NCBI GenBank assembly: GCA_046715155.1 | Contig: JBKJZI010000236.1 | Coordinates: 1-54,332 of the forward strand | Origin: Chthonomonadales bacterium | GTDB taxonomy: Bacteria > Armatimonadota > Chthonomonadetes > Chthonomonadales > CAJBBX01 | DNA: 54,332 nucleotides | Reading direction: 5' to 3' | Part shown: piece after piece, positions 1-54,332 of the stretch | Layout: the number at the start of each line of letters is the position of its first letter | How positions within the stretch are numbered: the first letter of the stretch is position 1 | Position numbers and translations under genes: made by a program | The notes under the pieces: model-generated | Told to the model about the DNA's origin: nothing | The model's input: the letters and a program-made list of their open reading frames with translations, nothing else | Databases searched by the model: none

Positions 1-1211
1 CTGAATGCGCGCCGGAGCCGCTGGATTCCGAGCATACGCTGTTCATCCTCTATACCTCCGGCTCGACCGGCAAGCCGAAGGGAATCCAGCACACGACCGC
101 CGGATACCTGACCGGAGTCTACGCGACCACCAAGTGGGTTTTTGACCTGAAGGAAGACGACATCTACTGGTGTACGGCGGACATCGGCTGGGTCACCGGG
201 CACTCCTATATCGTCTATGGTCCGCTGGCGAATGGGGCGACTTGCGTGATGTACGAAGGCGCGCCGGATACGCCGGAGCGCGACCGGTTCTGGAAGATCA
301 TCGAGAAGCATAAGGTCACTATCTTCTACACGGCGCCGACGGCGATTCGGACCTTTATGAAGTGGGGCGACGAGTATCCGGGGCGGTGCGACCTGTCCTC
401 CCTCCGGCTGCTCGGTTCTGTTGGCGAGCCCATCAATCCGGAAGCCTGGATGTGGTACCAGGAGCACATCGGCTGGGGCCGCTGTCCCGTCGTGGATACC
501 TGGTGGCAGACGGAGACCGGGCACATTCTGATCACCCCACTCCCCGGAATCACCAGCACGAAGCCCGGTTCGGCGACCTTCCCCTTCCCTGGAATCGAGG
601 CGGACGTAGTGAACGACCGCGGCGAATCCGTGCCGCTCGGCGGGGGCGGTTACCTGGTCATCAAGAAGCCGTGGCCGGGAATGCTTCGCACGCTGTGGGG
701 AAATGACGAGCGTTACCGCGATGTCTACTGGAGCCGATTTCCGGGAGTGTACTTTCCTGGCGATGGGGCGAAGCGGGATGACGAGGGCTACTACTGGCTG
801 CTTGGCCGCGTGGACGACGTGATGCTGGTGGCCGGCCACAACATCAGCACCATGGAGGTGGAATCCGCGCTGGTGGAGCACCCGGCGGTCGCCGAGGCCG
901 CGGTCATAGGCAAGAAACACGACATCAAAGGCCAGTCCCCCTGCGCATTCGTCACCGTCCGCGAGGGATTCCAGACCGGCGATGCGTTGGCCGATGAGCT
1001 CAAGGCCTTCGTCGGCAAAAAGCTCGGCGCCGTGTGCCGCCCGGACGATATTCTCTTCACCGCAGACCTCCCCAAGACTCGCAGCGGCAAGATCATGCGC
1101 CGATTGCTGAGAGACATCGCCGAAGGCCGCGCCCTTGGGGATACAACGACGCTCGCCGACCCCGCCGTAGTATCCGGCCTCAAAGAAAAGTACGAATCTG
1201 AGGAAGGCTAA
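1..1211 (+). CDS. acs: acetyl-CoA synthetase (AMP-forming), last ~400 codons; the 5' end lies upstream of the window
   Basis: The frame is open from nt 3. The translation contains [24 protein letters not shown] (AMP-binding signature), WWQTETG and the C-terminal [14 protein letters not shown]. Stop TAA at 1209-1211. ORF-track entry 246..1211 is only the part after an internal Met. Confidence 0.93.
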
Positions 1212-1217
1212 ACCGCA

Positions 1218-2711
1218 GTGTCCGAGCGACGACCACACGAAAACTGTTATTGGGTAGACGAAGCTTTGCTCGCTGGTGAATACCCGGGGGACAAGGATGC
1301 CGGTAAGGCGCGCGCAAAGATCGGAAGCATCCTGGACGATGGCGTCACTTGTTTTTTTGATCTCACCATGGAATGCGAGCTGGTACCGTACGAACAATCC
1401 CTTAATTCTGAATCCGCCAAGCGGGGTACAGTCACAGAATACCAGAGATTCCCGGTTCCCGATCTCGGGATTCCGACGGCTGACCAGATTACTGCGATCC
1501 TTGATGCAATTCAAGCGGCGGCAAGGATAGGGCGAAAATCATATATCCACTGTTGGGGTGGCGCCGGAAGGACCGGCGTCGTCGTTGGATGTCTCTTCGT
1601 GCGGCGCGGGATGTCTGGGACCGAAGCGCTCGAAACGGTATCACGACTCTGGTCCAGTGTAGAAAAAGCGTATCGAAGTCCTGCATCGCCTCAAACCGGC
1701 GGTCAAAGAAAGGCGGTTCTGGAATGGAGCGAGCCTTCTCGCCGGATGAATGCCGGAAAGGTTAATATTAATCGGCAAACCATAAGCCGATTCCGCGGTT
1801 GTCTACTCGGTCTAGCCGTCGGTGATGCAGTGGGAACGACTCTGGAGTTCAGAAGTCCGGGAACATTTGCGCCCATCAAGGACTTGGCAGGCGGAGGACC
1901 CTTTCGTTTGTCACCGGGCGAGTGGACTGACGATACGTCGATGGCGCTTTGCCTCGCTGCAAGCTTGATTGAATGTGACGGTTTCGACCTTAAAGATCAG
2001 ATCGAGCGATATGTGCGGTGGTGGAAATCGGGTTACCTTGCATCAAACGGGCGTTGTTTTGATATCGGAAACACCGTTCGTAGAGCACTGGAATCCTATA
2101 CACAGACGGGCAATCCTGAATCTGGACCAACAGACACGATGTCGGCTGGGAATGGGAGTATTATGCGGCTGGCTCCGGTAGCAATGGCCCACTTCTATGA
2201 TCCTGGTGAAGTCGCGAGTAAAAGTGAGCTTAGCTCGCGAACTACGCATGGGACTAAGACAGCCCTGGATGCGTGTCGTTTCTTTGGCGTCTTGCTGGCT
2301 GGTGCCTTGAACGGAGCGACCAAGGATGACCTCCTAGCGCCAGACTTCGAACGCGCTTCCAAGGTCTTCACCGAATCGCCGCTTCATCCGGAGATCATGA
2401 GGGTAGTGTCCGGCTCGTACAAGACGAAGAATCCGCCGGAGATTCGCGGAACCGGTTATGTCGTGCAGTCGCTGGAAGCGGCACTCTGGGCATTTTACAA
2501 TAGTACGTCTTTCGAGGAAGGCTGTTTGATGGCTGTGAATCTCGGTGATGACGCCGATACCACTGGCGCGGTGTACGGGCAGTTCGCCGGCGCCTATTAC
2601 GGGGAAGACAGTATTCCAATTAAGTGGCGAGAGAAGCTGGCCCATAGAATCGCCATCGAGCTTTTGGCCGAGCAAGTGTACGCGCTTGCTCGGCGAAACG
2701 GCGCTGGTTAG
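1218..2711 (+). CDS. fusion protein: N-terminal Cys-based (PTP/dual-specificity-like) phosphatase domain plus C-terminal ADP-ribosylglycohydrolase (ARH/DraG family) domain
   Basis: GTG start 6 nt after the acs stop. The N-domain has HCWGGAGRTG, an HCX5R(T) phosphatase P-loop. From about aa 190, FRGCLLGLAVGDAVGTTLEF, GEWTDDTSMALC, GNGSIMRLAPV and DADTTGAVYGQFAGAYYG are ARH-family blocks. Confidence 0.85.
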   Translation: MSERRPHENCYWVDEALLAGEYPGDKDAGKARAKIGSILDDGVTCFFDLTMECELVPYEQSLNSESAKRGTVTEYQRFPVPDLGIPTADQITAILDAIQAAARIGRKSYIHCWGGAGRTGVVVGCLFVRRGMSGTEALETVSRLWSSVEKAYRSPASPQTGGQRKAVLEWSEPSRRMNAGKVNINRQTISRFRGCLLGLAVGDAVGTTLEFRSPGTFAPIKDLAGGGPFRLSPGEWTDDTSMALCLAASLIECDGFDLKDQIERYVRWWKSGYLASNGRCFDIGNTVRRALESYTQTGNPESGPTDTMSAGNGSIMRLAPVAMAHFYDPGEVASKSELSSRTTHGTKTALDACRFFGVLLAGALNGATKDDLLAPDFERASKVFTESPLHPEIMRVVSGSYKTKNPPEIRGTGYVVQSLEAALWAFYNSTSFEEGCLMAVNLGDDADTTGAVYGQFAGAYYGEDSIPIKWREKLAHRIAIELLAEQVYALARRNGAG

Positions 2712-2786
2712 TGTAGACTCGATTGGGCGATGGCGGCGACAATCCGGAAAACTTGCATGTAGACCTGAAAGTAGGACGTTTAGAGA

Positions 2787-3035
2787 ATGGCGTTGGACAT
2801 AGACACCGCGAGAATACGACGCAAGCAGTCGAAATCCAAAGCGAAAAATCCCATGACCGCATGCCCGCCTCTTGATATGCTCGTTTTGCCAAAGAACGCG
2901 AAGGAGCCGCCTGATTTCGAGGCGCTGCTACAGTCTCTTCCTCGGTTTGATGCAGCGGAAGCGCAAAGCATGCGCAAAGCAATAGCGGACGAACGTGTGG
3001 AGAGGCGCCGGCATTCTCGCGAGACGGCCGATTGA
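2787..3035 (+). CDS. putative antitoxin partner of the downstream PIN toxin (fold not recognisable from sequence alone)
   Basis: An 82-aa ORF whose stop TGA (3033-3035) overlaps the TTG start (3032) of the PIN gene by 4 nt, the classic type II TA arrangement. The start is uncertain; an alternative ATG lies at 2853. Confidence 0.55.
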   Translation: MALDIDTARIRRKQSKSKAKNPMTACPPLDMLVLPKNAKEPPDFEALLQSLPRFDAAEAQSMRKAIADERVERRRHSRETAD

Positions 3036-3436: not shown

Positions 3437-3497
3437 CGATTCTGTCAGGTGCAGGCATCACTGGATAGAGTTGTTTTTGAAATCGAGTAAGAACTCT

Positions 3498-3782: not shown

Positions 3783-3815
3783 ACATCGGTCAAATCCGAC
3801 GGATCGGTAGGATCA

Positions 3816-7687: not shown

Positions 7688-7688
7688 G

Positions 7689-23161: not shown

Positions 23162-23192
23162 CGCCCCGACGGAATCCGATTCCGCCGGGGCG
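23162..23192. terminator. GC-rich hairpin between convergent genes (probable bidirectional terminator)
   Basis: cgccccgacgg / ccgccggggcg give 10 of 11 bp, with loop aatccgatt, followed by gtcttctttgg. Confidence 0.5.
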
Positions 23193-26803: not shown

Positions 26804-28012
26804 CTAGCGTCTCAATTCAAGCAAGTCCAGTTCGATGATCTCATCGCAGTCGGCGCGGATTCCGGCGAGGAGGGCGGAATCCGGGGGGCCGTCGAGGTTG
26901 ATGCGGGCTACGGCGGCTTCGGCGCCCTCAAAGACCACGTTTTCCATTTCCTGGACGTTGATGTGGGCGGCGCGGAGGGCGTTGAGGACAATGGCGAGGA
27001 CACCGGGACGGTCGCGGTGGCGTACTACCAAGCGGTGGGTGGCGGGCGTCTTCGTTGCTAAATTGACTACGTTTGGGACGCTGCCGGTCTCCTTGAAGGT
27101 CGTAATTATGCGAACTGTTTCGGCGGCGATTGCTTCCTGGGCCTGCTCAGTGGATGCGCCGATGTGGTGGGTGCCGTATAGATTCGGCTCTTCGCGAATG
27201 GGGTCTGTGAACTCGCCTGTCCCGCCGCTGGGCTCAGTGGCGTACACGTCCAAGCCGGCGCGGATTCCACGGGAGCGCATCGCCTCCACCAGCGCGGCCT
27301 GATCCACCACCTCGCCTCGGGATGTGTTGATGAAGTACGCACCCTCCTTCATGGCGCCGAAGAATTCCGCCCCGATGATTCCGCGCGTCTCCGGGTTCAA
27401 CGCTATGTGCACGCTGACGACGTCGGATCGCTGAGCGACGTCTACGGGAGACTCCGCGAACTCTATTCCGAGGCGCGCGCCTTCTTCGGCCGTCAAGCTG
27501 CGGCTCCAGCCGACGACCTTCATTCCAAACGCCTTCGCGCACGGAATCATCTCCTGTCCGATCTTACCCAGTCCCACTAGGCCAATCGTGCGGCCGAATA
27601 GTCCGCGCGCTTCGGAGAAAGCCTTCTTGTTCCACTCGCCCTTGCGCAGGGCGATGACATTGTCGGCGACTCTCCTGTCCAGTGAAAGGATGAGGGCGTA
27701 CGCCAGTTCTGCGACCGCGATGGAGTTCGCACCGGGGCAGTTGGAAACGTAGATTCCTTTACGGGAGGCAGCGGCCACGTCGATGGTGTTGTAGCCGGCG
27801 CCCGCGCGGACCACGAGCTTCAGGTTCCCGACTTCCAACGCCTTCTCGGAGACTTCGGTGGACCGAACGACCAGGATGTCCGCGACGGAATCCGCTAGCG
27901 CTTTCTCAAGCGATTCGTCCTTGGCGTCCGGATGATAAACAACTTCACAGCCCGCGGACTCTAAACCTGCAATACCAGATTCTTCGAAGCTATCCGCGAT
28001 CAACACGCGCAT
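26804..28012 (-). CDS. serA: D-3-phosphoglycerate dehydrogenase with C-terminal ACT domain
   Basis: D-2-hydroxyacid dehydrogenase fold: GLVGLGKIGQEM NAD-binding site, SRGEVVD, and catalytic HIGASTEQAQ. It has a ~75-aa ACT-like tail. 402 aa. Confidence 0.88.
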   Translation of the reverse strand: MRVLIADSFEESGIAGLESAGCEVVYHPDAKDESLEKALADSVADILVVRSTEVSEKALEVGNLKLVVRAGAGYNTIDVAAASRKGIYVSNCPGANSIAVAELAYALILSLDRRVADNVIALRKGEWNKKAFSEARGLFGRTIGLVGLGKIGQEMIPCAKAFGMKVVGWSRSLTAEEGARLGIEFAESPVDVAQRSDVVSVHIALNPETRGIIGAEFFGAMKEGAYFINTSRGEVVDQAALVEAMRSRGIRAGLDVYATEPSGGTGEFTDPIREEPNLYGTHHIGASTEQAQEAIAAETVRIITTFKETGSVPNVVNLATKTPATHRLVVRHRDRPGVLAIVLNALRAAHINVQEMENVVFEGAEAAVARINLDGPPDSALLAGIRADCDEIIELDLLELRR

Positions 28013-28122: not shown

Positions 28123-28221
28123 ATTGGTCGGTTGACGAATCCGGGGGGCTGTGATACACTGACACGACTGCCGCCAGGCAATTCTTCGAGGCCGGCGGAA
28201 TCGTTCCCCCCGAGAGTCTGG

Positions 28222-28572
28222 ATGTTCGCCCTCAACTTTTACACCGATCTCTATGAAGACGTTCTGCGCACGGGTCGCAAATCGGCGACGATACGTCTGG
28301 GCGACAAATCGGACAAATACCAGACGGGGCAGATTTGCTGGGTCACCGTCGGCCAGCGGTTCGGGAAGCGCCAGAAGCTCTTCTCCGCGATTCTTGACAG
28401 CGTCGAAGTGAAGCTGGTTGCGGACATCTCACCGCGTGACATCACGAAAGAGAATCCGGAATTTCGCTCGCGAGACGAAGTCCTGCAGCTTCTCCGCCGC
28501 ATTTACGGCCCTGAGATCAACCTTGAAGACACCGTCACGGTGGTCTATTTCTCCCCGGTCAGCGAGTACTAA
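28222..28572 (+). CDS. ASCH (PUA-like) domain protein
   Basis: MFALNFYTDLYEDVLRTGRKSATIRLGDKSDKYQTGQICWV...VTVVYFSPV. The first plausible ATG is at 28222, within ORF 28132..28572. Confidence 0.65.
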   Translation: MFALNFYTDLYEDVLRTGRKSATIRLGDKSDKYQTGQICWVTVGQRFGKRQKLFSAILDSVEVKLVADISPRDITKENPEFRSRDEVLQLLRRIYGPEINLEDTVTVVYFSPVSEY

Positions 28573-28577: not shown

Positions 28578-31205
28578 ATGCGCCGTTTAGCCTACGCCGT
28601 TCTCGCCGTCGCCCTCGCGTTCGTCCCGCTCCGCCTGTTATCTTCACAGCAGCCCGCAACCGGAGGGGTTTTTACGGACCGGAGCGGCGCTAAACACGCG
28701 TGGAACATTAACTCATCCCACGCGCTGACGTGGGACCGAGAACCCTATATCCCTGTGGGTGGGGTCTTCTGTCCGCGTTACCTGGCCGAGGGCCAGACGG
28801 AATCAAACTGGGCCGCCGACGCGAAGGCGCTGGATTCCCTCAAAGCGAAGGGAATGCAGGACATCCTTATAAACCCCGTGGTCTCTGCCGCTGAGATTCC
28901 GGCCGCCGCGTGGCAGAAACTGATCGACTACCTGGACGCGAACGGATTCCGGTATGGGATTTCATTCGGCCTGGGAATCCGCGCTCCTCTGACAGGGACG
29001 CTTATCAAGCCACAGAGCTACCGCCAGCCCAACATTCGAGAAGGCGCGGAGATCAACTGGAAGGTCTCCGACGCGGATTCCGCCCGCTTTGTAATTGCCG
29101 ATGGGGAAGGGACCGTCCACGACTCGCGCGATATCCAATTCACCAGCGGAAAGGCGACCTTCGTCCCCGACACGAGCGTACTTCCCGGCTCGGTTGCGCT
29201 GCTGTTTCCGCGAAAGACGCTGAAGCCCCACGCGGATGGTTGGCTGCCGGACGTCTGGTCGGATTACGATTCGTATCGCGACCGATTGCTTCGAAGCCTC
29301 GGCGCAGTAAAGTTCGGGCCAGGTCTGCGATTTTTCCTTGACCCGCTGGCGCATCCGTTGCGAATCAGCCTGGAGGCGGACGACCTGGTGCCTGACTCCG
29401 CGGGATTCCGTCTCGAGTGGGAGGCGTACCTGTCGCGGAAATACCGAAGCGCGGACGAGCTGCTGGCGAGCTGGGCGATCCTGGATCGCGAGGTGGATAC
29501 GTACGCCCATGCTGCCGCGCTTGTCCCACTCTGGTCTCGCGGCCGAGGAGTGCCGTACATGCTCGATCCGATCAAGAACCGGCTGATCGAGATGGACCGG
29601 AACTCCGCCGATCAGTCCCGTTTCTGGCAAGATCTCCGACTGTGCCGCCATGAGTCGCTGGCGTACTACATGAACAATGCGGCCGATCTGTTGAAGCGCC
29701 ATATCGCGGACGTTCCGGTCATCTACACCTATACGGATCAGCACCGGATGTTCACCAACTTCCAGCCGGCAGGCGGATTCGACGGTATCGGAATTGCGGC
29801 GTATGGGCGCGGTACTGCCCTTGTCAGCGGCGGCGCGAGCGCCGCCTACTCGCAAGCGAATGAGAGCAAGCGGCCGTCTTGGCTGATAGTGACCGAAATG
29901 CTGGACGGGCCGATCCAATCAAAATTGACGCCCGGATACGAATCCGAACAGGGAATGACGCGCGACCTGGACTGGCTGCGCGGAATCGGCGCCAAAGGGT
30001 TCTTCGTCAACGGGTTTCAGCTTTTGCCCGACGCATCTGCCGCCAACGCGCAGCTCCTCAAAGCCCCCGAGCAGATCGACTGGCTGAAGCGATACGCCGA
30101 CCGCGTGCAGCGCGAGAACGTGGCGCACAATCGGCCGGTCACTCTCCCCTATCCGGCATGCGCTGCGGGGCTGGTAAGCGAAGGACCCATCGGAAGTGGA
30201 AGTGTGTGGTGGGTGCCGTCCCTTTCCGCCGGAAGATCGCTCGAATTCGGGACGTCCTACGCGGGTTACGTCATTGCGATGCCGGAGGGAGATACCACAG
30301 TCCTCTGGTCCCTCGCCGGCCCGCGCGAGACGCGTCTGTACGTCGCCGATCCTCGTACGGTCCAGGTCATGACCGCGGATTTAAAACCCCTATTGACAAA
30401 GGCGAACCTGAAGAAGCGCACCGTAACCGTGGTCATAGATAAGAATCCGGTGGTGATCCGGGGAGCTGGGGAAAACTTTCTACCGCTCGAAGCGGTCGAG
30501 GATTCGCTGCAACAGCTTTACGCGCTGCTGCAAGAAGCGGAAGCCGGCAAGATCCCGGTGCACGAAGCGCGCAACTCATTCGAGAGCGCGCTGCGATCCA
30601 TGAACAACAACCAGCCGCTAATGGCTTTCACCGCCGCGGTGGACGGTCTGAATAAGGCCGGGGCCGCGCTTCAGCCCTATACCTGGATCGAGGCGGAATC
30701 CGCCCAGAACCACAGCTTCAGCGAGGCCAACCACGATGCGGCAGCGTCCGGCGGGGGATTCCTGGCGCTCAACACCGAAACGAATCCGCCCGCCGCCGGC
30801 TACTCCGCGCAGTTCCAGTTCTCGGTGCCGCGGGAAGACGTCTATATGGTTTGGGCAGCCGCAACGCCTCCCGGCACGGAATCATCGCCGTTCTACTGGA
30901 CCATCGATTCCGACGATCCGCAGACCAGCGCTCAGGCGGTACCGATAGGCGGCACGTACTTGCACGACCGGCTGATCTGGCTTCGCCTGGGACGCACGCG
31001 GCTTAAAAAGGGCGACCATACGCTCACCCTGCGCGTGACAGACCGGGCCGCTCCAGAGGGCCGATTCCACCTGGCCCTCGATTCCATCATGGTAACGCGT
31101 TACCCATTCACCCCCTCGGGAATTACAAAACCTCCCCTCGCGCTACTCACCGGCAAGCCGATTCCGCTAACCGACATGTCCAAACGCGCGCGTCCCTCCA
31201 AGTAG
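28578..31205 (+). CDS. large exported hypothetical protein, possibly glycoside-hydrolase-like with a C-terminal carbohydrate-binding-type domain
   Basis: Signal peptide MRRLAYAVLAVALAFVPLRL. 875 aa. C-terminal WIEAESAQNHSF...AAASGGGFLALN resembles CBM-type sugar-binding modules. The family assignment is weak. Confidence 0.8.
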   Translation: MRRLAYAVLAVALAFVPLRLLSSQQPATGGVFTDRSGAKHAWNINSSHALTWDREPYIPVGGVFCPRYLAEGQTESNWAADAKALDSLKAKGMQDILINPVVSAAEIPAAAWQKLIDYLDANGFRYGISFGLGIRAPLTGTLIKPQSYRQPNIREGAEINWKVSDADSARFVIADGEGTVHDSRDIQFTSGKATFVPDTSVLPGSVALLFPRKTLKPHADGWLPDVWSDYDSYRDRLLRSLGAVKFGPGLRFFLDPLAHPLRISLEADDLVPDSAGFRLEWEAYLSRKYRSADELLASWAILDREVDTYAHAAALVPLWSRGRGVPYMLDPIKNRLIEMDRNSADQSRFWQDLRLCRHESLAYYMNNAADLLKRHIADVPVIYTYTDQHRMFTNFQPAGGFDGIGIAAYGRGTALVSGGASAAYSQANESKRPSWLIVTEMLDGPIQSKLTPGYESEQGMTRDLDWLRGIGAKGFFVNGFQLLPDASAANAQLLKAPEQIDWLKRYADRVQRENVAHNRPVTLPYPACAAGLVSEGPIGSGSVWWVPSLSAGRSLEFGTSYAGYVIAMPEGDTTVLWSLAGPRETRLYVADPRTVQVMTADLKPLLTKANLKKRTVTVVIDKNPVVIRGAGENFLPLEAVEDSLQQLYALLQEAEAGKIPVHEARNSFESALRSMNNNQPLMAFTAAVDGLNKAGAALQPYTWIEAESAQNHSFSEANHDAAASGGGFLALNTETNPPAAGYSAQFQFSVPREDVYMVWAAATPPGTESSPFYWTIDSDDPQTSAQAVPIGGTYLHDRLIWLRLGRTRLKKGDHTLTLRVTDRAAPEGRFHLALDSIMVTRYPFTPSGITKPPLALLTGKPIPLTDMSKRARPSK

Positions 31206-36597: not shown

Positions 36598-37728
36598 TTA
36601 ACCGATATCCCGGCCCTGCCCGCCGTCACCGATTGCCGCCGGTTCTTTGAGAAGCTCCCGCGCGCGCTGACGGAGCCGATCCAAGGGCTGATATTCAATG
36701 CCTGTTTCGGGGCGGGCCATCCATGCAGTCCAGCCATTGCAGCCCGCAGCGCCCAGAAGATGGGCGCCAACGAAATGGATACTCCCGCGTGCGCCGTTAG
36801 AAGATATAGTGCCGTCAGCGTGGATCAATCCGAATAGTGGTCCGCTGCCAAGACGCAGCCGGTCCCCTTCCCTTACGAGACCCAATTCCAACAGGACGGA
36901 GAAAGCGACACGCTCCGGCTGAGGCGGAGGCGGCGCTAGGGATTCATCCGGCGCGGGCGTCACGGATTCGATCCTCATGCGGCCAGCGTCAACATAAGCG
37001 TCCTCGCGTTCGATTCCGATAAACCGGCGGCCCAGCCGCTTTGCGACCGACGCCGTGGTGCCCGCTCCTAAGAAAGGGTCCAGAACGGTATCGCCAGGAT
37101 TTGTGCAGCTTCGGATGATGCGATGCAAAAGGGCTTCCGGCTTCTGGGTGGTGTGGACTTTACCGTTCGCGTCGCGGAGTCGCTCTCTCCCCTGGCAGAT
37201 CGGCAGATACCAATCGCTGCGCGCCTGCAGATCTTCGTTGCCGGCCTTGAGCGACCCGTAATGAAATGTATAGCGCTTCTGTTCCGCCGACTTCTTCGCC
37301 CAAATCAGAGTTTCGTGCGCGTTGCAGAATCGGACCCCGCGGAACTGCGGCATGGGATTGGATTTGACCCAGCAGATGTCGTTGAGAATCCAATATCCGA
37401 GGTCCTGAAGGATGGAGCCGACTCGGAAGATGTTATGGTAGGTGCCGATAACCCAAATAGTCCCCGTGTCTTTCAACACGCGGCGGCATGCCAGGAGCCA
37501 CTCTCGGGTGAACCTATCGTAGGCTTCAAAGCTCATGAACTGGTCCCAACCGTCATTCACCGCATCAACGCGCGACATATCGGGCCGGTAGAGCTCTTTG
37601 CGAAGCTGAAGGTTATACGGAGGGTCCGCAAAGACGAGGTCCGCGCACTGCTCAGGGAGCGACTGCATAACCTGAATGCAGTCGCCCTGGATGATGTCAC
37701 CGCCGTCCATTTCGATCTTCACGTTCAC
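36598..37728 (-). CDS. ccrM: CcrM-type beta-class N6-adenine DNA methyltransferase (predicted GANTC specificity); no adjacent endonuclease
   Basis: LVFADPPYNLQL (motif IV DPPY), VLDPFLGAGTTASVAKRLGRRFIGIERE (motif I). There are long collinear blocks I recall from Caulobacter CcrM: DAVNDGWDQF, YDRFTREWL, RRVLKDTGTIWVIGTYHNIFRVG, NPMPQFRGVRFCNAHETLIWA, KRYTFHY, TQKPEALL. The CcrM-specific C-terminal domain is also present (GSIHFVGA...CNGWTAW). Confidence 0.9.
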   Translation of the reverse strand: MNVKIEMDGGDIIQGDCIQVMQSLPEQCADLVFADPPYNLQLRKELYRPDMSRVDAVNDGWDQFMSFEAYDRFTREWLLACRRVLKDTGTIWVIGTYHNIFRVGSILQDLGYWILNDICWVKSNPMPQFRGVRFCNAHETLIWAKKSAEQKRYTFHYGSLKAGNEDLQARSDWYLPICQGRERLRDANGKVHTTQKPEALLHRIIRSCTNPGDTVLDPFLGAGTTASVAKRLGRRFIGIEREDAYVDAGRMRIESVTPAPDESLAPPPPQPERVAFSVLLELGLVREGDRLRLGSGPLFGLIHADGTISSNGARGSIHFVGAHLLGAAGCNGWTAWMARPETGIEYQPLDRLRQRARELLKEPAAIGDGGQGRDIG

Positions 37729-37744: not shown

Positions 37745-37803
37745 GTAATTAACTAATCAGTCAACAGTAATGGCCCTTACTGATCACTGTTTACTGATTA
37801 CTG
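37745..37803. repeat. imperfect hairpin of ACTGATN heptamers between ccrM start and fmt stop
   Basis: cagtcaacagtaa (37758-37770), loop tggccc, ttactgatcactg (37777-37789): 11 of 13 bp. The right arm continues as actgatc-actgttt-actgatt-actg and overlaps the fmt stop codon. Confidence 0.7.
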
Positions 37804-38738
37804 CTTTCCGTCTCAAATCGGTCACCCGGTGAAATGCGAGCCCCGCGAGCCCACTCTGCGCCGGACATTCGGCGGCTGTTTTCGGGCTGCACTTCCAATA
37901 GATCAACAGCGCCATTCCCGGTTCCTACGGTCACGGAATCGCGGCTGCTGGAAACGACGGTTCCAGGCTCTTTCTCCGGAAGGGGAGATACCGCTACCGA
38001 CCACAACTTGATCCTGCGCCCGCGGAAGTAGGCGAAGATGCCCGGCCGAGGTGAGAGCGCCCGCACCCGGTTGCGAATTCTCGTCGCGGGCTCGTTCCAT
38101 CGGACAGCAGTGTCTTCAGGTGTGATAGCAGGGGCGTGTGTTGCGAGCGCGTCGTCTTGCGGAATCCGCGCGATAGTCCCTTCCTGAATCTGCCTAAACG
38201 TCTCCAGAAGCAGCTCGGCGCCTGCGGCGGCCATCCTGGGGACGAGCGTGCCGGTTGTATCCTCCGGATCGATCGGAACTTCCAGTTTGAGCAGAATATC
38301 TCCGGTATCCAGAGTTGCGTCCATCCACATGGTGGTTACGCCCGTTACGGTCTCGCCGTTCAAGATAGCGTATTGTATCGGAGCAGCTCCCCTATATGCC
38401 GGAAGCAATGACCCGTGCACGTTGATAGGGCCCTTCGGCGGTAGATCCAGCAGCGCCTGCGGAATGATCTGCCCAAACGCCGCGAGCGCCAGCGCCTCCG
38501 GATTCATCTCCCTCGCCTGTAAGATGAACGATTCCGCTCGCACCCGCTTCGGCTGCAGGACGGGCAGACCCAACCGGAGAGCCGCGTGTTTGACCGGTGA
38601 GAACGCCACCTTTAAACCTCGTCCTTGCGGCCTGTCCGGCTGAGTAACGACCGCCAAAACTTCATGTCGGCCGGATTCCGCCAGCGCCTCTAAGGAAAGC
38701 ACCGCGAACTCAGCCGTCCCGAAGAAAAGCACGCGCAT
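37791..38738 (-). CDS. fmt: methionyl-tRNA formyltransferase
   Basis: MRVLFFGTAEFAV..., VVTQPDRPQGRG, HGSLLPAYRGAAPIQYAILNGE, TGVTTMWMDATLDTGDIL. Confidence 0.93.
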   Translation of the reverse strand: MRVLFFGTAEFAVLSLEALAESGRHEVLAVVTQPDRPQGRGLKVAFSPVKHAALRLGLPVLQPKRVRAESFILQAREMNPEALALAAFGQIIPQALLDLPPKGPINVHGSLLPAYRGAAPIQYAILNGETVTGVTTMWMDATLDTGDILLKLEVPIDPEDTTGTLVPRMAAAGAELLLETFRQIQEGTIARIPQDDALATHAPAITPEDTAVRWNEPATRIRNRVRALSPRPGIFAYFRGRRIKLWSVAVSPLPEKEPGTVVSSSRDSVTVGTGNGAVDLLEVQPENSRRMSGAEWARGARISPGDRFETESSNQ

Positions 38739-39166: not shown

Positions 39167-39180
39167 TTGCGGCTATTCTC
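39154..39180. repeat. right arm of the inverted repeat bracketing the GxxExxY insert; overlaps the def stop and the GxxExxY start
   Basis: CATTCGCGTTCATTTGCGGCTAttctc. It contains the tandem decamer (TCGCGTTCAT)x2 that encodes the MNANERE N-terminus on the minus strand. Confidence 0.9.
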
Positions 39181-39745
39181 GCATCTCCGGATCGTCTTCT
39201 TCATCCAGCTCCGATTCGACGAGCCAGTGAAGGGTCTCGCGCTCGGCTCGCTGGAAGAAGAGGATTCCGTCCAGGTGGTCGATTTCGTGCTGGATAACGC
39301 GCGCTTCGAGCTCACGGGCGCGGCGGCGGAACGGCCGGCCGAGAAGGTCCATGCCTTTGACGATAACTTCATTGGCGCGTTTGACCTCGCCCTGCAGGCG
39401 CGGAATAGAGAGGCAGCCCTCCGTTCCGATCTGTTCTCCTTTCAAGGAGACGATCTTCGGATTCACCACCACTCGCACCGGTTCATCCTCCTCCGGAAGC
39501 CTGTAAATGATTACGCGCTCCGAGACCCCGATCTGAGGGGCGGCGAGTCCGATGCCGCGCCAGTCGGCCATCGCCTGTTTCATCCGGTCGACGAGCTGAC
39601 GCGTTGCAGCAGTCGGCTTAACGACCGCAGTTGACGGCCGTTCCAACACCGGATCCGGATACTTGACGATGGGGCCGTCCAACTCATCCCACAGCGCCCG
39701 GATATCGGGCGGAATCTCGAGTTGGAACTCTTTGTCGATCAGCAT
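39173..39745 (-). CDS. def: peptide deformylase
   Basis: GIGLAAPQIG, EGCLSIP, HEIDHLDG (the three PDF motifs). Confidence 0.93.
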   Translation of the reverse strand: MLIDKEFQLEIPPDIRALWDELDGPIVKYPDPVLERPSTAVVKPTAATRQLVDRMKQAMADWRGIGLAAPQIGVSERVIIYRLPEEDEPVRVVVNPKIVSLKGEQIGTEGCLSIPRLQGEVKRANEVIVKGMDLLGRPFRRRARELEARVIQHEIDHLDGILFFQRAERETLHWLVESELDEEDDPEMRE

Positions 39746-41659: not shown

Positions 41660-42229
41660 ATGGAACATTCGCAACCATTCTCGGACGAGCAGCTTGCCCT
41701 GGAGCGCGTGGCCGACCGCATCCTGGAGACCTTCCCTTCGGACCCCGACCGTCCCGCCTATACCGAGCGGCAGTTGGCCCGCCACGGCAAACACCTTGTT
41801 GTTGTGAGCATCTACAGCCTGTCCGAAAGGATGGTGGCTGAGCCCCAGGAGTTCCGCGACGAGCTGCGATTCCTCATGTCCGTCACCCGGTTACGGCCGG
41901 AGCAGCGGCGCTGCCTTCGATTGTGGGTGGATGGCTGGAGCCAGTGGGAAATAGCCACGGCCTACGGCGTTCCGCAGCAAACAATCTCTTACCGAATCCG
42001 CCGCGCACTACGCGCTTGCTATGATTCCGCCCCCCTATCCTTCCGCCGCTTCAGCTATCACAGCATCTATCGTAAGCCTCGCAATGGCCGCGACTTCACT
42101 ATTCTGCGCAAGTGCACACACTGCGAGGACGCGTATTCCCTGGGAGTCGGGTTGGGGCGCTACTGCTCTCTCCGCTGCCGGGAGGCCGCCCGCCATTCCA
42201 GCGCGGAAAAAATCGCAGCTCCATATTGA
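41660..42229 (+). CDS. sigma-70 region-4-like HTH protein with C-terminal zinc-ribbon
   Basis: ATG 41660 follows GGAAAGGA. LRPEQRRCLRLWVDGWSQWEIATAYGVPQQTISYRIRRALRA (r4/LuxR-type HTH). C-terminal CTHCEDAY...YCSLRCREAA. Confidence 0.7.
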   Translation: MEHSQPFSDEQLALERVADRILETFPSDPDRPAYTERQLARHGKHLVVVSIYSLSERMVAEPQEFRDELRFLMSVTRLRPEQRRCLRLWVDGWSQWEIATAYGVPQQTISYRIRRALRACYDSAPLSFRRFSYHSIYRKPRNGRDFTILRKCTHCEDAYSLGVGLGRYCSLRCREAARHSSAEKIAAPY

Positions 42230-42860
42230 CTCTCGCGACGAAAAGTGGGAATATGGTCACGTCGCACGTTCGCCGGTGGCCAGAAACTCTCAGCAACGCC
42301 GCCGGCACTTGCTGCCGAACAAGGAGGGCCTACGGTTTTGATACCGCCGGACAGTCTAACGGAAAGCAGCCGGGAGAGGGCCTGACCCTGACTGAACGTC
42401 GCCGAGCTACCGCCACCGTCCCACGGGACAGCGACGGCTCCGACGAGACTCCAGGCGCAGAGAACGCGCACGAAAAGGGCGGCTCTCTCCCGGTTTCCCG
42501 TTTGCACCCCCTCCTCTTCGCAATCACCTCGGAACCATTTCGCAATCCAGCCTTCGCCTGACCCGGATTACCCTCAATTCTGTCGGAACTACCATTCGCC
42601 GGATTATCGGATTTCACGGACTTCGACCCCCTACCAGAGGGATGAATATCCGGCGACTGAACTGCCCTGTCCCGCCCAGGCCCCTCAAAAACCTCAAAAA
42701 CCGCCCCGAACGGCCAAAAAACCCCAAAAAACTTCAAGAAAAGTAGCGCGTGAACCGAAAACGGCTTAATCTTGAAGTTCCCTTGAAGTTCCACTCTCTA
42801 TAATGGCTCATGCAGCATAACGAATATCGTTTGCTCGCATCCCATAGGGAGGGAAACTGA

Positions 42861-43298
42861 ATGAACCGCACCACCGGCAGCACCGTATCCAGCCCAACGT
42901 TCCGCTCTCGCTTCGCCCGCATCGTCACGGCGTTCTACCTGCTCACCGTGTCCACCGCGGCGCTTGCCGTGGTGGTGACCATCCCGATCCACATCTCGAC
43001 GCCGTCCTCCGTAACCGGCGGGAACAACTTCACGACGACTGTAGGCACGGGATCCGCAATTTCACAGAACGGAGCGGTACTGGTCAGCACCACGCGCCCG
43101 GACATCCTTACCTCGCCGACTGCGAGCTGGCCCTACACCCTGACCATCCCGGCAAACACGACGAGCGGCGCATTCTCGGTCAGCGCATCCAGCGTCAGCT
43201 CCTCGCAGAACGCCACGATCGTCACCTGCGCAACCAACGAAGACATCTCGAATCCGAACAACTGGCGCGCAACCTTCAGCGTGACCGTCAATCCGTAG
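42861..43298 (+). CDS. hypothetical membrane-anchored Ser/Thr-rich protein
   Basis: RBS GGGAGGGA. TM helix IVTAFYLLTVSTAALAVVVTI. 145 aa. Confidence 0.65.
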   Translation: MNRTTGSTVSSPTFRSRFARIVTAFYLLTVSTAALAVVVTIPIHISTPSSVTGGNNFTTTVGTGSAISQNGAVLVSTTRPDILTSPTASWPYTLTIPANTTSGAFSVSASSVSSSQNATIVTCATNEDISNPNNWRATFSVTVNP

Positions 43299-43488: not shown

Positions 43489-43707
43489 ACTTACAGATCG
43501 AGGACAATCGGCTTCGTATGGCGGCGCCTTGGATCATAAATCTGCCCCGCTATAGTTGAATGAGTCCCGAATCTTGCGCCCGGCTCGCATCATCTGTTCA
43601 TATACTCTCCCGACCTGCGGAACAACTATACTTGGAATGGAACCGGTGACCGCGGATTCCGTCGCGTCTTGAAGCTGGATCCTGTTCTGATACGGCCGTG
43701 GATTCCG

Positions 43708-43749: not shown

Positions 43750-43838
43750 GGAGAGGTGGCTGAGTGGTCGATAGCGGCGGTTTGCTAAACCGTTATAGGC
43801 TTTAAACCCTATCCCGGGTTCGAATCCCGGCCTCTCCG
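43750..43838 (+). tRNA. tRNA-Ser (anticodon GCU), class II with long variable arm
   Basis: Acceptor GGAGAGG/CCTCTCC, D-arm GCTGAGTGGTCGATAGC, anticodon stem-loop GCGGT-TTGCTAA-ACCGT, variable arm TATAGGCTTTAAACCCTAT, T-arm CCCGGGTTCGAATCCCGG, discriminator G. The CCA end is not fully encoded. Confidence 0.93.
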
Positions 43839-43848
43839 CCGGGAAACA

Positions 43849-50350: not shown

Positions 50351-50411
50351 AGGAATCAGCGAACTTCAGACGGAATCAACCGTCCGTACAAATCCCGACG
50401 GAGGTTTACCC

Positions 50412-50900: not shown

Positions 50901-50904
50901 GCCC

Positions 50905-51657
50905 ATGTTCTTTTCGCTTGAAGGACACGGAGCCGTTGTCACTGGCGCCGCGCGCGGAATCGGATTCGCGATCGCCCGGCGGCTGGCGCGGGCCGGGGCG
51001 GGCGTGGTTATAGCAGACATGGACGAATCAGCGGCCAAGAAGGCGGCCGAATCGCTTCGCGGTGAAGGTCTAAATGCGGACGGAATCCGCGCGGATGTAA
51101 CGCAGCCTCAGGATGCCGAGGCCATGGTGGCGCAAGCCGTGGAGCTTTACGGCAACCTCGGAACGATGGTGAACAACGCCGGTATCGCTGGAAAGTCCGC
51201 GCCGATCTGGGAGACCAGCAACGAGGATTGGTCGCGGGTAATCGAGGTGAACCTGACCGGCGTATTCAACTGCTGCCGGGCGGCGATAAAGCAGATGCGC
51301 GAGCAGAAGTCCGGCGCCATCGTCAATATCGCCTCCATTTCCGGCAAGGAGGGGAATCCGAACATGATTCCCTACTCCACTTCCAAGGCCGGCGTCATTT
51401 GCCTTACGAAAGCTCTCGCCAAAGAAGTAGTAGGCGACGGGATCCGCGTCAACGCCGTGGCCCCCGCCGTCATCGAGACCGAGATACTGCAGCAGCTCAG
51501 CAAAGAGACGGTCGAGTACATGTGCAGCAAGATCCCCATGGGCCGCCCAGGCACCACCGAAGAAGTCGCCGCCGTCGTCCACTTCCTCGCCAGCCCCGAC
51601 GCCAGCTTCGTCACCGGCCAATGCTACGACGTGAGTGGGGGAAGAGCGACGTACTGA
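50905..51657 (+). CDS. short-chain dehydrogenase/reductase (FabG-like)
   Basis: VVTGAARGIGFAIARRL (TGxxxGxG), NNAGI, and catalytic YSTSKAGVICLTKALA (YxxxK). Confidence 0.9.
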   Translation: MFFSLEGHGAVVTGAARGIGFAIARRLARAGAGVVIADMDESAAKKAAESLRGEGLNADGIRADVTQPQDAEAMVAQAVELYGNLGTMVNNAGIAGKSAPIWETSNEDWSRVIEVNLTGVFNCCRAAIKQMREQKSGAIVNIASISGKEGNPNMIPYSTSKAGVICLTKALAKEVVGDGIRVNAVAPAVIETEILQQLSKETVEYMCSKIPMGRPGTTEEVAAVVHFLASPDASFVTGQCYDVSGGRATY

Positions 51658-51856
51658 GTGTGTGGCTGAATCGTTCTCTTACTCGTAATCGTGATCGGCC
51701 GTTTCAAGCATCATGCCCCTGAGGAAGTAGTCCGGGGCAGTTGTTTTACACCCCGGACTGGATTAAGGCGAATACCCCGGCGACGCATGGCGCGAGAAAC
51801 TGGACCATGAGCTAGCTGTCTAACAATACTTTCATCGCAGGGTGAAACATTTTTAC

Positions 51857-51892
51857 TGGTACGCCCGTCTATTATAATAGGCGGGCGTACCA
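51857..51892. promoter_or_regulatory. 36-nt palindrome with TATAAT at its centre (operator and/or hairpin)
   Basis: tggtacgcccgtctattataataggcgggcgtacca gives 17 Watson-Crick pairs plus one T-G. TATAAT is at 51873-51878. It lies 74 nt upstream of the multi-HTH gene. Confidence 0.6.
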
Positions 51893-51901
51893 CATTTGGC
51901 C

Positions 51902-51946
51902 CCGTCTAATCTTTCCGATCCGTCTGATATGTCCGATCCGTCGGAT
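51902..51946 (+). promoter_or_regulatory. three direct CCGTCNNAT repeats at exact 18-bp spacing
   Basis: CCGTCTAAT at 51902, CCGTCTGAT at 51920, CCGTCGGAT at 51938. A fourth copy, CCGTCTATT, lies at 51865 inside the palindrome, with an inverted imperfect copy at 51876-51884. Confidence 0.55.
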
Positions 51947-51965
51947 CAAGTCTTAAGAGGAAGAC

Positions 51966-53450
51966 ATGCCAAGAAACGACAACCTTTTCCAGGACCCGGA
52001 TTCTCTCCGAAAGAAAGGCTGGTTGCCGCAATCCGAAGCCGCCAGGCTCCTCGGACTCCCCCCAACTGAAATGATCAGTTGGGACTTCATCGACGCCGAG
52101 CAGCGAACCGAAGACGGCGGCAACTGGGTCAAGCTCCTCCCCGAAGTCGCCGCCAAACACGGCCTCACAAAACCGCCCAAGCCGTCACCCGCCACCCGTC
52201 CTCCGTCCAAAAGTCCAAAATCCAAAATCCAAAATCCAAAAATAGATAACCCCCGTATCGTCGAGCTGAACCACCAGAAACTCCTACGTCCCTGGTTCAA
52301 CGGCGCCTACGCCCGAACCGTCCGCGAAGCCGCTGAAGAGTTGGGCGTCTCCGCTGCCTACATTCAGGGAATCGCCCGGAACCGTCTCAACGCCATCAAA
52401 CGTGAGGGCATCCTCTGGATTCCCCAGGACGAGATCGACCTTCATCGCTGGCGGCAGGAGCGCTGGGCCGAGCTGGGGGGTCAATGGACTTCTTATGGCC
52501 GGAAGTGGAAAAAAGGCACGGAACCCGTCCCGGAGCCGGAGCCGGAGCTCACGCTCGACGATCTTGGAGAGCCCGTTGGCGCCGACGTCTGGATAACTGC
52601 CAGGGAAGCAGCCGCCATTCTCGGATTCAATCCTCCATTCGTCAATCAACTTGCGCGGCAGGGAAAACTCAACTTTCGAGTGGAGTCCGCGCCCGATAGC
52701 ACGCGCGGTAGAGGGCATTTACTGAGCCGCAAGCGGCTTGTGTACAATATGGCCGAAGTGCTCAAATACGAAATGCGGCGAGCGGAAGAAAGCTGGAAGC
52801 GGAATATCTCGCCGAAGGAATGGAACCATGACCGGCGTCGCCCCATTCTTCGTAGCTGGCGCGACATACCCCCGACCGTAAACCTGATCTCCGCCCGCAA
52901 GGCGGCGCAAATCCTCGGCGTTTCCAAGCAGACTCTCGCCGGCATCGTTAAGCGCGGCCGCCTGTTCATATGGAGCGCCCGACACGGTAAGCGCGGCGCG
53001 CCAACATTCAACAGCGAAGATCAAGTAATGCGATACGCCTCCAATCCCGATCGCCTGGCAAGGAGAGCGGCCTACTTTAGTCCCCCGAAAGAGAAGCAAC
53101 CCTATGCCGAGGACGGCCTGCTGAAGGAGTGGGCAGACTGGCAAGAGGATAACGGACTGTTAGACCACCACCCGAACCCCAAAAAGGCGCGCGACGTCGG
53201 CGAATTCTACACCACGCGCCAGGCTGCACAGGTTCTTGGGGTAAGCGCATCCGCGGTCCGGGCCATGCGGGATAGGCGGCGGATTAAGGGTTACCGGAGC
53301 CGCAAAACCTGGATCCGTGAGAACCCAAACTCCTACTGGTTCTTTAAGAAAGAAGACATCCACGCCCTGCTACACGACGAGAAATACCGTCGCCTGCGCG
53401 ACGACGCAAAACGGAAGAACTTCGAAACCCAACGCCGCCGCTCCTCCTGA
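51966..53450 (+). CDS. protein with five tandem excisionase/MerR-type HTH (HTH_17-like) domains
   Basis: RBS AAGAGGAAG. Five units of pattern x[ST]xx[EQ]AAxxLG[VLF]-x8-10-G-x-[LI]: LPQSEAARLLGLPPTEM, RTVREAAEELGVSAAYIQGIARNRL, ITAREAAAILGFNPPFVNQLARQGKL, ISARKAAQILGVSKQTLAGIVKRGRL, YTTRQAAQVLGVSASAVRAMRDRRRI. Confidence 0.75.
   Translation: MPRNDNLFQDPDSLRKKGWLPQSEAARLLGLPPTEMISWDFIDAEQRTEDGGNWVKLLPEVAAKHGLTKPPKPSPATRPPSKSPKSKIQNPKIDNPRIVELNHQKLLRPWFNGAYARTVREAAEELGVSAAYIQGIARNRLNAIKREGILWIPQDEIDLHRWRQERWAELGGQWTSYGRKWKKGTEPVPEPEPELTLDDLGEPVGADVWITAREAAAILGFNPPFVNQLARQGKLNFRVESAPDSTRGRGHLLSRKRLVYNMAEVLKYEMRRAEESWKRNISPKEWNHDRRRPILRSWRDIPPTVNLISARKAAQILGVSKQTLAGIVKRGRLFIWSARHGKRGAPTFNSEDQVMRYASNPDRLARRAAYFSPPKEKQPYAEDGLLKEWADWQEDNGLLDHHPNPKKARDVGEFYTTRQAAQVLGVSASAVRAMRDRRRIKGYRSRKTWIRENPNSYWFFKKEDIHALLHDEKYRRLRDDAKRKNFETQRRRSS
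52206..52241 (+). repeat. TCCAAAA heptamer array inside the multi-HTH coding sequence
   Basis: TCCAAAA at 52206, a single g, then four perfect tandem TCCAAAA units at 52214-52241. It encodes the linker SKSPKSKIQNPKI. Confidence 0.9.
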
Positions 53451-53533
53451 TACCGCAGCTCGATTACGTTCATGCGCCTCAACATCACGGGAAGCGTATA
53501 CCCTCCCGCGCGTCCGGAGGACGATTTTCCCAG

Positions 53534-53553
53534 CCGGGGATTTGAATCCCCGG
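53534..53553 (+). terminator. 8-bp hairpin plus T-rich tail after the multi-HTH gene
   Basis: ccggggat-ttga-atccccgg, followed by ttctgctt. Confidence 0.55.
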
Positions 53554-53568
53554 TTCTGCTTAACGCCT

Positions 53569-54332
53569 TCAGATTCCGGCCGTCAATACTCGCTCTGTAG
53601 CTTCCAGCGTCGCGTCGATGTCGGATTCGGTGTGTGCGGTGGAGATGCTTCCCTGTTTGGTGGGGAGGGGGAAATTGTAGATACCTTCCTCGATGAGAGC
53701 GCGGCGGTAGCGAAGGTCGCGGGGCATGTCGTGGTTTTCGGCGAGGTCGTGCCAGTCTTGCGGGTCGTGGTCCATAAAATACGCGCAGAAGGCGGATCCC
53801 TGTCTTCCTACAGTGGCCGCGATTCCGTGCGTGCGGAATAGGTCAGTCAGCCCCTCTTCCATGCATTTACCCATTCTCTCTAGCCGTGGGTAAATGTCTT
53901 CTTCCTCCCGAATTAGCTTCTCTAGCGTGGCGATGGCGGCGGCGACGGGAATCGGATGGCCGTTGTAGGTCCCTGATATCATCACTCGGCGCGCGGGGTC
54001 CGGCTGCGAAAAAAAGTCCATGATCCCGGCTATCCCACCGATGGCCCCCAGCGGGTAGCCGTTCGCGATAGCCTTGCCGAAAATCGAGAGATCGGGCGTC
54101 ACGCCCGCGATAGATTGATATCCGCCCAGCGCGTGTCGGAATCCGGTCTTTACCTCGTCGAAAACGAGGACCACGCCGAATTGGTCGCAAAGCGCGCGCA
54201 GACCTGCAAGGTACCCCGGCAGCGGCTTCACCACACCAATGTTCTGTAGAATCGGCTCCGTGATAAGGCAGGCGGCCGGATTCCGCTCGAAGACCCACTG
54301 AACGGAATCGAGATCATTGAAGTTCACGACGT
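53569..54332 (-). CDS. class-III PLP-dependent aminotransferase (GSA-aminomutase-like), C-terminal part; the 5' end lies beyond the window
   Basis: VLVFDEVKTGFR (PLP-Lys block) and TYNGHPIPVAAAIATLEKL. The ORF is open to the window edge. Confidence 0.88.
   Translation of the reverse strand, partial: VVNFNDLDSVQWVFERNPAACLITEPILQNIGVVKPLPGYLAGLRALCDQFGVVLVFDEVKTGFRHALGGYQSIAGVTPDLSIFGKAIANGYPLGAIGGIAGIMDFFSQPDPARRVMISGTYNGHPIPVAAAIATLEKLIREEEDIYPRLERMGKCMEEGLTDLFRTHGIAATVGRQGSAFCAYFMDHDPQDWHDLAENHDMPRDLRYRRALIEEGIYNFPLPTKQGSISTAHTESDIDATLEATERVLTAGI

Follow-up and report, generated by a model that had tools for sequence, protein, structure and literature searches.

What keeps a short DNA word at extreme density along a bacterial chromosome, in genes and spacers alike? 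The question is raised by a 54,332-base contig (JBKJZI010000236.1, assembly GCA_046715155.1; GC 60%) from a Chthonomonadales soil bacterium of the phylum Armatimonadota, hereafter the window, in which the word GGAWTCC (W = A or T) is hyper-abundant. A first-pass annotation, made from the letters alone, had likened the word to the highly iterated palindrome HIP1 of cyanobacteria or to DNA uptake sequences (DUS) and uptake signal sequences (USS), and had pointed out that its core GAWTC is a subset of GANTC, the target of the DNA methylase CcrM. HIP1 has been without an explanation for about 30 years and tends to be regarded as a cyanobacterial peculiarity. We found that the excess in the window is real, as that annotation had observed, and our analysis supports its interpretation with refinements. 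The data on the word come from the window and one 13 kb relative.

Counts and null models

An exact search returned 89 copies of GGAWTCC (38 GGAATCC and 51 GGATTCC), the same number that had been counted by eye, and at the positions that had been listed. The zero-order expectation was 7.0 copies, an excess of 12.6x where about 7 copies and 12-fold had been estimated, and dinucleotide shuffles of the window gave 12.1 ± 3.3 copies with a maximum of 22. Markov models of order 1, 2, and 3 predicted 12.2, 19.3, and 28.7 copies, leaving excesses of 7.3x, 4.6x, and 3.1x. Orders 3 to 5 had been suggested beforehand as a check; order 3 fell well short of the observed count, but orders 4 and 5 left only x1.4 and x1.0, because the 6-mers contained in the word are enriched themselves and its flanks are independent, so that these models absorb the 7-mer signal. 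The control word GGASTCC (S = G or C), also suggested beforehand, occurred 13 times (1.2x). The cores behaved likewise, with 348 sites for GAWTC (6.4 per kb; 4.4x zero order) and 92 for GASTC (0.8x). Since GASTC is not enriched, the reader of the underlying force must tell W from S.

Flanking bases followed a consistent pattern. CG was present on at least one side of 75 of the 89 GGAWTCC sites, and 236 of the 348 GAWTC sites belonged to CGGAWTC or GAWTCCG. The full CGGAWTCCG accounted for 39 of the 89 (zero-order expectation 0.6; 62x). All top 6- to 10-mers in the k-mer ranking derived from this one motif. Strong over-representation beyond composition-based models, as in words of the HIP class, is a property of the window.

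Effects of coding were assessed in 35 genes called crudely via codon statistics, which cover 82% of the window. These contained 78 GGAWTCC sites vs 16.4 ± 3.7 in within-gene synonymous-codon shuffles (z 16.8) and 10.2 ± 3.2 in codon-order shuffles (z 21.5). Codon-preserving shuffles had been named beforehand as the test able to refute the excess, and they do not reproduce the count. The 78 sites occupied phases 0, 1, and 2 in numbers of 31, 12, and 35, and both coding strands held sites. Relative to synonymous opportunity the phases were equal: GAWTC filled 66% of the opportunities in phase 0, 40% in phase 1, and 32% in phase 2, where 28%, 16%, and 11% were expected (ratios 2.4, 2.5, and 2.8). 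Every called gene contained GAWTC sites and the excess was uniform over all genes. Spacers were enriched too. In 7.3 kb of strictly intergenic DNA, dinucleotide shuffles gave 22.6 ± 4.2 GAWTC and 4.0 ± 2.1 CGGAWTC/GAWTCCG, and the observed counts were 42 and 22; the three intergenic copies that had been cited as examples (starting at 23171, 43654, and 43700) all lie in strictly intergenic segments.

The force was visible in codon choice and possibly in protein content. Glycine before ATC or TTC was encoded by GGA in 76 of 103 cases (74%) vs 21% elsewhere, and GASTC was depleted solely in phase 0, where GAS-TCN competes synonymously with GAW-TCN. Glu/Asp-Ser dipeptides numbered 10.7 per 1000 codons vs 5.6 and 4.9 in non-enriched relatives, a difference that is indicative only because different genes were compared. 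Analyses of codon usage and selection in such genomes need to consider this effect on codons and dipeptides.

A by-product of codon usage, codon-pair bias, or favored dipeptides has a negligible chance of explaining the word. GAA, GAT, ATC, TTC, and TCC are common codons, and zero-order GAWTC ratios of 1.2–2.4 occur in many unrelated genomes, but synonymous and codon-order shuffles yield 16 and 10 copies vs 78, the phases are equal, spacers are enriched, and relatives within the order that match the window in GC content and codon usage are at baseline. On these grounds we rejected it, as the annotation had done when it argued that codon pairs or dipeptides could not suffice. The failure of synonymous shuffles, the phase equality, and the spacer enrichment together show a DNA-level force on 5'-cgGAWTC-3', so that it is the DNA word itself that is acted on, as had been proposed.

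Structure of the motif

In a logo of the 348 GAWTC sites, the only informative flanking positions were -2, -1, +1, and +2 (c-g-GAWTC-c-g), so the word is not part of a longer repeat. Dispersed repeats such as repetitive extragenic palindromic (REP) elements, miniature inverted-repeat transposable elements (MITEs), or tandem arrays were rejected on this evidence, and we consider their chance vanishingly small: tandem (CCGGAAT)n arrays do exist at two loci from other phyla, but the window has no arrays and its sites lie within ordinary genes in every frame.

Substitution of an outer base in GGAATCC left an excess of 4–8x, and changes inside GAATC reduced it to 0.4–1.7x. One-base relaxations, reported earlier as frequent, were indeed enriched (NGAWTCC 4–5x), and no one-off variant of GGAATCC was clearly depleted among the one-base variants counted in the window. 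One-base deviations are concentrated at the outer positions, as they are in HIP1 (Elhai 2015, PMC4390886). Bases at the outer G/C and C/G positions are preferred but not required; the excess needs the GAWTC 5-mer intact, which makes this 5-mer the essential part and agrees with the view of the core as a subset of GANTC.

The two flanks acted independently. Left G and right C occurred together at 89 sites vs 90.2 expected, and left CG with right CG at 39 vs 39.2; within one flank, C at -2 and G at -1 were associated (135 vs 105.9). The unit therefore appears to be 5'-cgGAWTC-3' on each strand and not a cooperative palindrome. The description of the word as a quasi-palindrome holds for the consensus cgGAWTCcg, which is symmetric, but the palindrome does not seem to act as the unit: it would result from a symmetric core with a preference on each strand.

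Neither orientation nor spacing was structured. No strand skew was found in the window (110 CGGAWTC vs 126 GAWTCCG on the + strand, with a similar balance in each third). Distances between GAWTC sites were near exponential with a mild shortage of gaps under 20 bp, and we found no periodicity at 3 bp, at the helical repeat, or up to 300 bp among the window sites. Other spacers between the half-sites were without enrichment in the window (GGATCC 0.8x, GGANNTCC 1.5x), and GATC reached only 1.5x. Cooperative half-site or variable-spacer models (GGATCC, GGANNTCC, GGANNNTCC) were unsupported in the window.

These properties bear on the idea that the word is bound, without regard to methylation, by an abundant dimeric DNA-binding or nucleoid protein, and that the chromosome has been under selection for a large number of such sites. 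In its favor, the core shows dyad symmetry, a nucleoid role was proposed for HIP1 by Xu et al. (PMC5861425), and one gene of the window encodes a 494-aa protein with multiple HTH_17 repeats. Cooperative half-sites would be expected of a dimeric binder, however, and the flanks are independent, the spacer variants GGATCC and GGANNTCC are not enriched, spacing has no periodicity, and the core coincides exactly with a specificity known for methylases and restriction enzymes. We regard such a protein as a very improbable cause.

The resident methylase

The CcrM-type gene that had been noticed in the window is present (Table 1). Its product matched NCBIfam NF050803 over profile positions 5–349 of 350 with 519.8 bits; the equivalog cut-off is 830 bits, which makes it a homologue and not an equivalog of alphaproteobacterial CcrM. 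It aligned with Caulobacter crescentus CcrM (6PBD) at 446 bits over residues 11–357, including the DPPY motif and the C-terminal domain, and contained Pfam domains PF01555 and PF18755, with a C-terminal RAMA domain. These matches make the gene product a full-length beta-class member of the CcrM family of N6-adenine DNA methyltransferases. A nuclease gene adjoining it was not found; its neighbors are fmt and an FA_hydroxylase-like membrane protein, here as well as in the related contigs L001 and L132. The methylase is an orphan and not part of a type II restriction-modification system. The order def-fmt-ccrM, in which def and fmt are housekeeping genes, was common to the window, L001, L132, and L133.

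Canonical CcrM has no preference for the central base of its target. The central-base pocket of the C. crescentus enzyme, L38-G39-G40-D41-L42, corresponds to L-R-K-E-L in the window methylase. Gly40 is conserved in GANTC enzymes, and Lys or Asp is found instead in all homologues that have been shown experimentally to be GAWTC-specific (Hiraoka et al. 2022, PMC8919816). We infer that the W-specific excess matches a W-specific variant of the enzyme. The window methylase shares its family and orphan status with alphaproteobacterial CcrM and the Gly40→Lys change with the GAWTC-specific ones (PMC8919816; Albu et al. 2011, PMC3287173), and differs in that its host lies outside the Proteobacteria and its score falls below the NCBIfam equivalog cut-off.

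Distribution among relatives

The syntenic contig L001, from another sample, encodes a methylase 83% identical to that of the window and has ~78% nucleotide identity to it. It was enriched in GAWTC (69 vs 32.1 ± 4.7 in synonymous shuffles) and in GGAWTCC (11 vs 3.6 ± 1.8), and its top 7-mer was CGGAATC. L132 (methylase 71% identical) and L260 (carboxyltransferase 87% identical) had zero-order GGAWTCC ratios of 4.7x and 6.7x that were not significant vs synonymous shuffles, nor was their GAWTC, and the firmly enriched clade therefore consists of the window and L001. L001, L132, and L260 all came from soils of forest and farmland. GGAWTCC was at baseline in L256–L259, which are Chthonomonadales-like with carboxyltransferases 78–81% identical. 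Whether relatives share the word, a check proposed at the outset, thus has a divided answer: the syntenic L001 does, but other Chthonomonadales-like and Armatimonadota relatives do not. A search of metagenome contigs with the methylase protein yielded six short loci only.

Individual sites were shared somewhat above control levels. GAWTC sites were common to the window and its close relatives in 40% of cases vs 30% for GC-matched control 5-mers, and ~40% of 7-mer sites were shared with L001 vs 19% for controls. Sites not shared between the window and L001 differed by ordinary transitions over all core positions.

Two side observations concern other relatives. Bare GAWTC was 1.7x over synonymous shuffles in L256 and L004 (z 4.7 and 5.1), without the G/C flank preference, and may represent the same phenomenon at a weaker or an earlier stage. 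In L004/L005 (Fimbriimonadales, AP024673.1), GCGCGCC had 69 copies in 21 kb and related CpG-rich 7-mers dominated, while GGAWTCC had 0 copies there despite a CcrM homologue; this lineage may have a different over-represented word.

A proposed methylation-linked origin and its alternatives

The explanation that we favor, and to which we give about an even chance, is that a HIP1-like hyper-abundant word has formed around a methylation site and is maintained by a DNA-level drive or selection tied to the resident methylase. The GAWTC core is most likely the target of the orphan methylase, as predicted from its pocket; in that case almost every one of the ~6 sites per kb would carry methylation on both strands. 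The excess would have accrued site by site through a weak, additive bias at the level of DNA, favoring GAWTC plus, independently on each strand, a 5' CG; flank independence fits an additive enzymatic preference on each strand. Such a bias would act equally in the codon phases and in spacers and would be strong enough to shift synonymous codons and dipeptide content. As has been proposed for HIP1, its source would be a step in which the methylated site is read, for instance in methyl-dependent repair or recombination or when incoming DNA is processed. A clade-limited second factor is probably required, because the methylase alone is not sufficient. These data are compatible with selection and with molecular drive alike.

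Several observations weigh against this explanation. L133, with a methylase 66% identical and the same gene order, was at baseline for both GAWTC and GGAWTCC, and L134, L135, L002, and L004 (methylase 59–62% identical) were at baseline for GGAWTCC; it is these relatives, carrying the methylase without the excess, that make it insufficient by itself. Across the relatives, position 40 of CcrM is K, N, G, or Q and does not track the excess, and we discarded it as a predictor. When a GAWTC-specific enzyme was given the D49G mutation, its specificity did not change (Hiraoka et al. 2022, PMC8919816), which leaves the pocket residue as no more than a correlate. In Alphaproteobacteria, methylated GANTC/GAWTC is depleted roughly two- to three-fold. 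A reader or repair gene was not identified in the window. Finally, site sharing with relatives does not prove selection, because independent gains at conserved amino-acid contexts could give it.

The trait is young and confined to a narrow clade, and the methylase predates it. A contrast for finding the responsible factor is available in close relatives that match the window in methylase, GC content, and codon usage but do not have the excess, and a comparison of gene content between enriched and non-enriched lineages, including those in other phyla, makes the question directly testable.

Site turnover and uniformity also suit an origin in mutation or repair alone, with no connection to the methylase. 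A mismatch-repair or nicking enzyme that prefers the GAWTC context could, for example, turn near-cognate sequences into the word and leave sites without function. Contributions to the word are additive and per strand, turnover is rapid, with ~60% of sites unshared at 78% nucleotide identity, the excess is uniform over all genes, and the word occurs in a scatter of phyla, as a mobile enzyme would be expected to produce. Yet none of the one-off precursors is depleted in the way that CTWGG is under Vsr repair, sites that differ from L001 do so by ordinary transitions over all core positions, and the window contains no candidate enzyme. Nor would a bias of this sort explain why the core coincides with the predicted site of the methylase. 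We consider a bias of this kind quite unlikely.

Relation to known word systems

Very-short-patch repair by Vsr at the Dcm site CCWGG of Escherichia coli follows deamination of 5-methylcytosine, has modest effects, and depletes the T-containing precursor. The window would resemble this system in a methylase-linked repair bias that alters oligomer frequencies throughout the genome, and differs from it in having no depleted precursor.

HIP1 is the closest analogue, closer than DUS or USS. HIP1 (GCGATCGC) and the alternate HIPs are, like the window word, short GC-flanked symmetric words that are hyper-abundant in genes and spacers and in all frames. A resident orphan methylase targets the core of HIP1, and the window is predicted to have the same arrangement. 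Both words are lineage-specific and show patchy loss or replacement. They differ in that the host here belongs to the Armatimonadota and is not a cyanobacterium, that the word is not GCGATCGC, and that the HIP1 core is GATC/CGATCG where the window has a 5-bp predicted N6-methyladenine site of the beta-class CcrM family. The zero-order excesses of the full word in the window, 12.6x (7-mer) and 62x (9-mer), fall in the lowest part of the HIP1 range, and its independent flanks, by which the palindrome would not be a cooperative unit, set it apart from HIP1. HIP1 has been proposed to arise by methyl-dependent repair (Elhai 2015, PMC4390886), selection and a nucleoid role have been argued for it (Xu et al. 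2018, PMC5861425), and methylated HIP1 raises transformation in Synechococcus 7002 in a Chi-like or uptake-like manner (Kamoku and Nielsen).

Neisseria DUS and Pasteurellaceae USS share with the window word a density of about one per kb, a presence in coding DNA and all frames, and an effect on peptides, and their spread has been attributed to molecular drive. Armatimonadota are not known to have competence or an uptake receptor. DUS and USS are longer, asymmetric, and cooperative; the window word has a 5-bp symmetric core with soft, independent flanks and carries no information beyond ±2 bases, where an uptake sequence would be an asymmetric 9- to 12-mer enriched at full length. Of the two likenesses proposed at first, the one to HIP1 stood and the one to DUS/USS did not hold for these defining features. 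The orientation bias characteristic of Chi or the FtsK-orienting polar sequences (KOPS) was likewise absent from the window (110 vs 126).

The word could still be a self-recognition tag for natural transformation or recombination, DUS/USS- or Chi-like and possibly read only when methylated, that is favored through preferential uptake or recombination. Uptake sequences have a similar density (0.7–6 per kb here) and likewise occur in all frames, transformation of Synechococcus 7002 is enhanced by methylated HIP1, prepilin-type genes occur in the window, and its dipeptide content is shifted, an effect also known for USS. Set against this, the word is short and degenerate with independent flanks and no long cooperative asymmetric core, strand skew is missing, which speaks against Chi or KOPS, no inverted pairs stand at terminators, N_methyl prepilin-like proteins are common in the phylum and are not evidence of competence, and the same word recurs in unrelated phyla. 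A tag function seems to us a rather improbable origin of the word.

The methylated motif is under-represented in Alphaproteobacteria (log2 observed/expected about -1 to -1.7), in contrast with the 4.4x over-representation of GAWTC in the window. Our literature searches on GGAWTCC, on GANTC in Armatimonadetes, and on over-represented GANTC found no prior description. The window would be a second, independent HIP1-like case, in another phylum, with a different orphan methylase and a motif normally avoided by genomes, and such a case would show that methylation-site words can reach very high density more generally.

Loci in other phyla and viral contigs

Genome contigs were scanned for two CGGAWTCCG within 5–35 bp, which listed at least 120 matches, mostly single chance hits in unrelated taxa. 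The resulting loci of 8 kb each were chosen for the word pair and carry that selection bias. Among the matches listed, about 15 loci had five or more extra GGAWTCC per 8 kb, where ~1 is expected, with the selecting pair discounted, and weaker dispersed excesses were seen in about 10–15; the counts in L063 and L074 came partly from (CCGGAAT)n arrays. Compared with synonymous shuffles, and with the two selecting sites per locus included, GGAWTCC counts were 12 vs 3.5 in L086 (Fibrobacteria), 7 vs 1.5 in L046 (Planctomycetaceae), 9 vs 2.3 in L013 (Acetatifactor, Lachnospiraceae), 5 vs 1.1 in L108 (an alphaproteobacterial metagenome-assembled genome, MAG), 7 vs 2.2 in L100 (Bacteroidota), and 7 vs 3.0 in L067 (Acidobacteriota). 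When pooled with the selecting pairs masked, the enriched loci had 3.4 GAWTC per kb vs 1.8 in the remaining loci, and they showed the same G-1/C+1 preference as the window. A CcrM gene was not found in these loci, whose 8 kb are too short to judge co-occurrence. The data are suggestive of independent rises of the same word in other phyla, weaker than in the window.

A broader reading, which we think unlikely, is that cgGAWTC hyper-abundance recurs across phyla wherever a CcrM-family GAWTC methylase meets a possibly mobile reader or repair factor, through methylation-dependent molecular drive, with HIP1 as the cyanobacterial instance. If it were true, the same word would have flooded Armatimonadota, Fibrobacteria, Planctomycetota, Acidobacteriota, and others repeatedly.

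Some of these loci had peculiarities of their own. The tandem heptamer arrays (CCGGAAT)n lie at 4101–4142 of L063 (Acidobacteriota MAG) and 6705–6739 of L074 (Isosphaeraceae MAG). In L059 (8 kb of the Fibrobacteria MAG contig DAOPYN010000011.1), GGATCC had 32 copies (11.7x), GGAWTCC was at 11x, GGAATTCC had 5 copies, and GGANNNTCC was at 6.6x; the half-site GGA..TCC seems to be enriched there with several spacers, unlike in the window. The 9-mer pair occurred three times at a 105-bp period in L019 (Gaiella MAG, 1713–1946), which points to a tandem repeat containing the word.

Viral contigs with the same pair pattern included three enriched loci among the 120 listed, none of them linked to the clade of the window. 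Two IMG/VR contigs, L217 and L245, contained 1 copy of GASTC vs roughly 20–30 from base composition, with GAWTC at 1.8–1.9x and GGAWTCC enriched. The scarcity of GASTC looks like avoidance of a GAGTC-specific restriction enzyme.

Gene content and minor features of the window

Genes in the window include a sulfatase, a rhamnosidase, a prepilin-like protein, a Ser/Thr kinase, and tetratricopeptide repeat (TPR) proteins, a content that is not alphaproteobacterial. Named homologues of two window proteins came from Armatimonadota (Chthonomonadales, Chthonomonadaceae, Capsulimonadaceae, Armatimonadia, and Fimbriimonadales). Features with coordinates are collected in Table 1.

Table 1. Positions of the motif field, the methylase locus, and other features in the window.
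Feature	Position	Strand	Basis or remark
GAWTC field, 348 sites	1..54332	.	exact counts
Tri1/DraG-like ADP-ribosylarginine hydrolase	1218-2711	+	N-terminal extension of ~160 aa
Intergenic GGAATCC	23171..23177	.	within strictly intergenic segment 23142-23212
Two word copies 19 bp apart	26856..26884		GGATTCC 26857 and GGAATCC 26876, in serA-like gene
ASCH-domain open reading frame (ORF)	28132-28572	+	
875-aa protein	28578-31205	+	no family match
Stand-alone CcrM-family N6-adenine DNA methyltransferase (predicted)	36598..37728	-	profile, structure-sequence and domain matches
fmt	37791-38738	-	part of conserved def-fmt-ccrM order
def	39173-39745	-	part of conserved def-fmt-ccrM order
Longest GAWTC-free stretch, 1227 bp	42023..43250		low coding score, downstream of sigma-factor-like ORF (sigma-70 region 4)
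Two intergenic GGATTCC	43654..43706	.	upstream of tRNA-Ser
tRNA-Ser(GCT)	43750-43840	+	only RNA gene detected in window
494-aa protein with at least three HTH_17 repeats	51966-53450	+	excisionase/MerR-like repeats

The ASCH-domain ORF adjoins the gene for the 875-aa protein, and the pair is kept in L001. ASCH domains have a PUA-like fold, a fold that includes readers of modified bases. The gene for the 494-aa HTH_17 protein has a low GAWTC density of 2.7 per kb. The hydrolase gene has an unusually low GC content at third codon positions, 0.55 vs ~0.72, and its word density is nonetheless normal.

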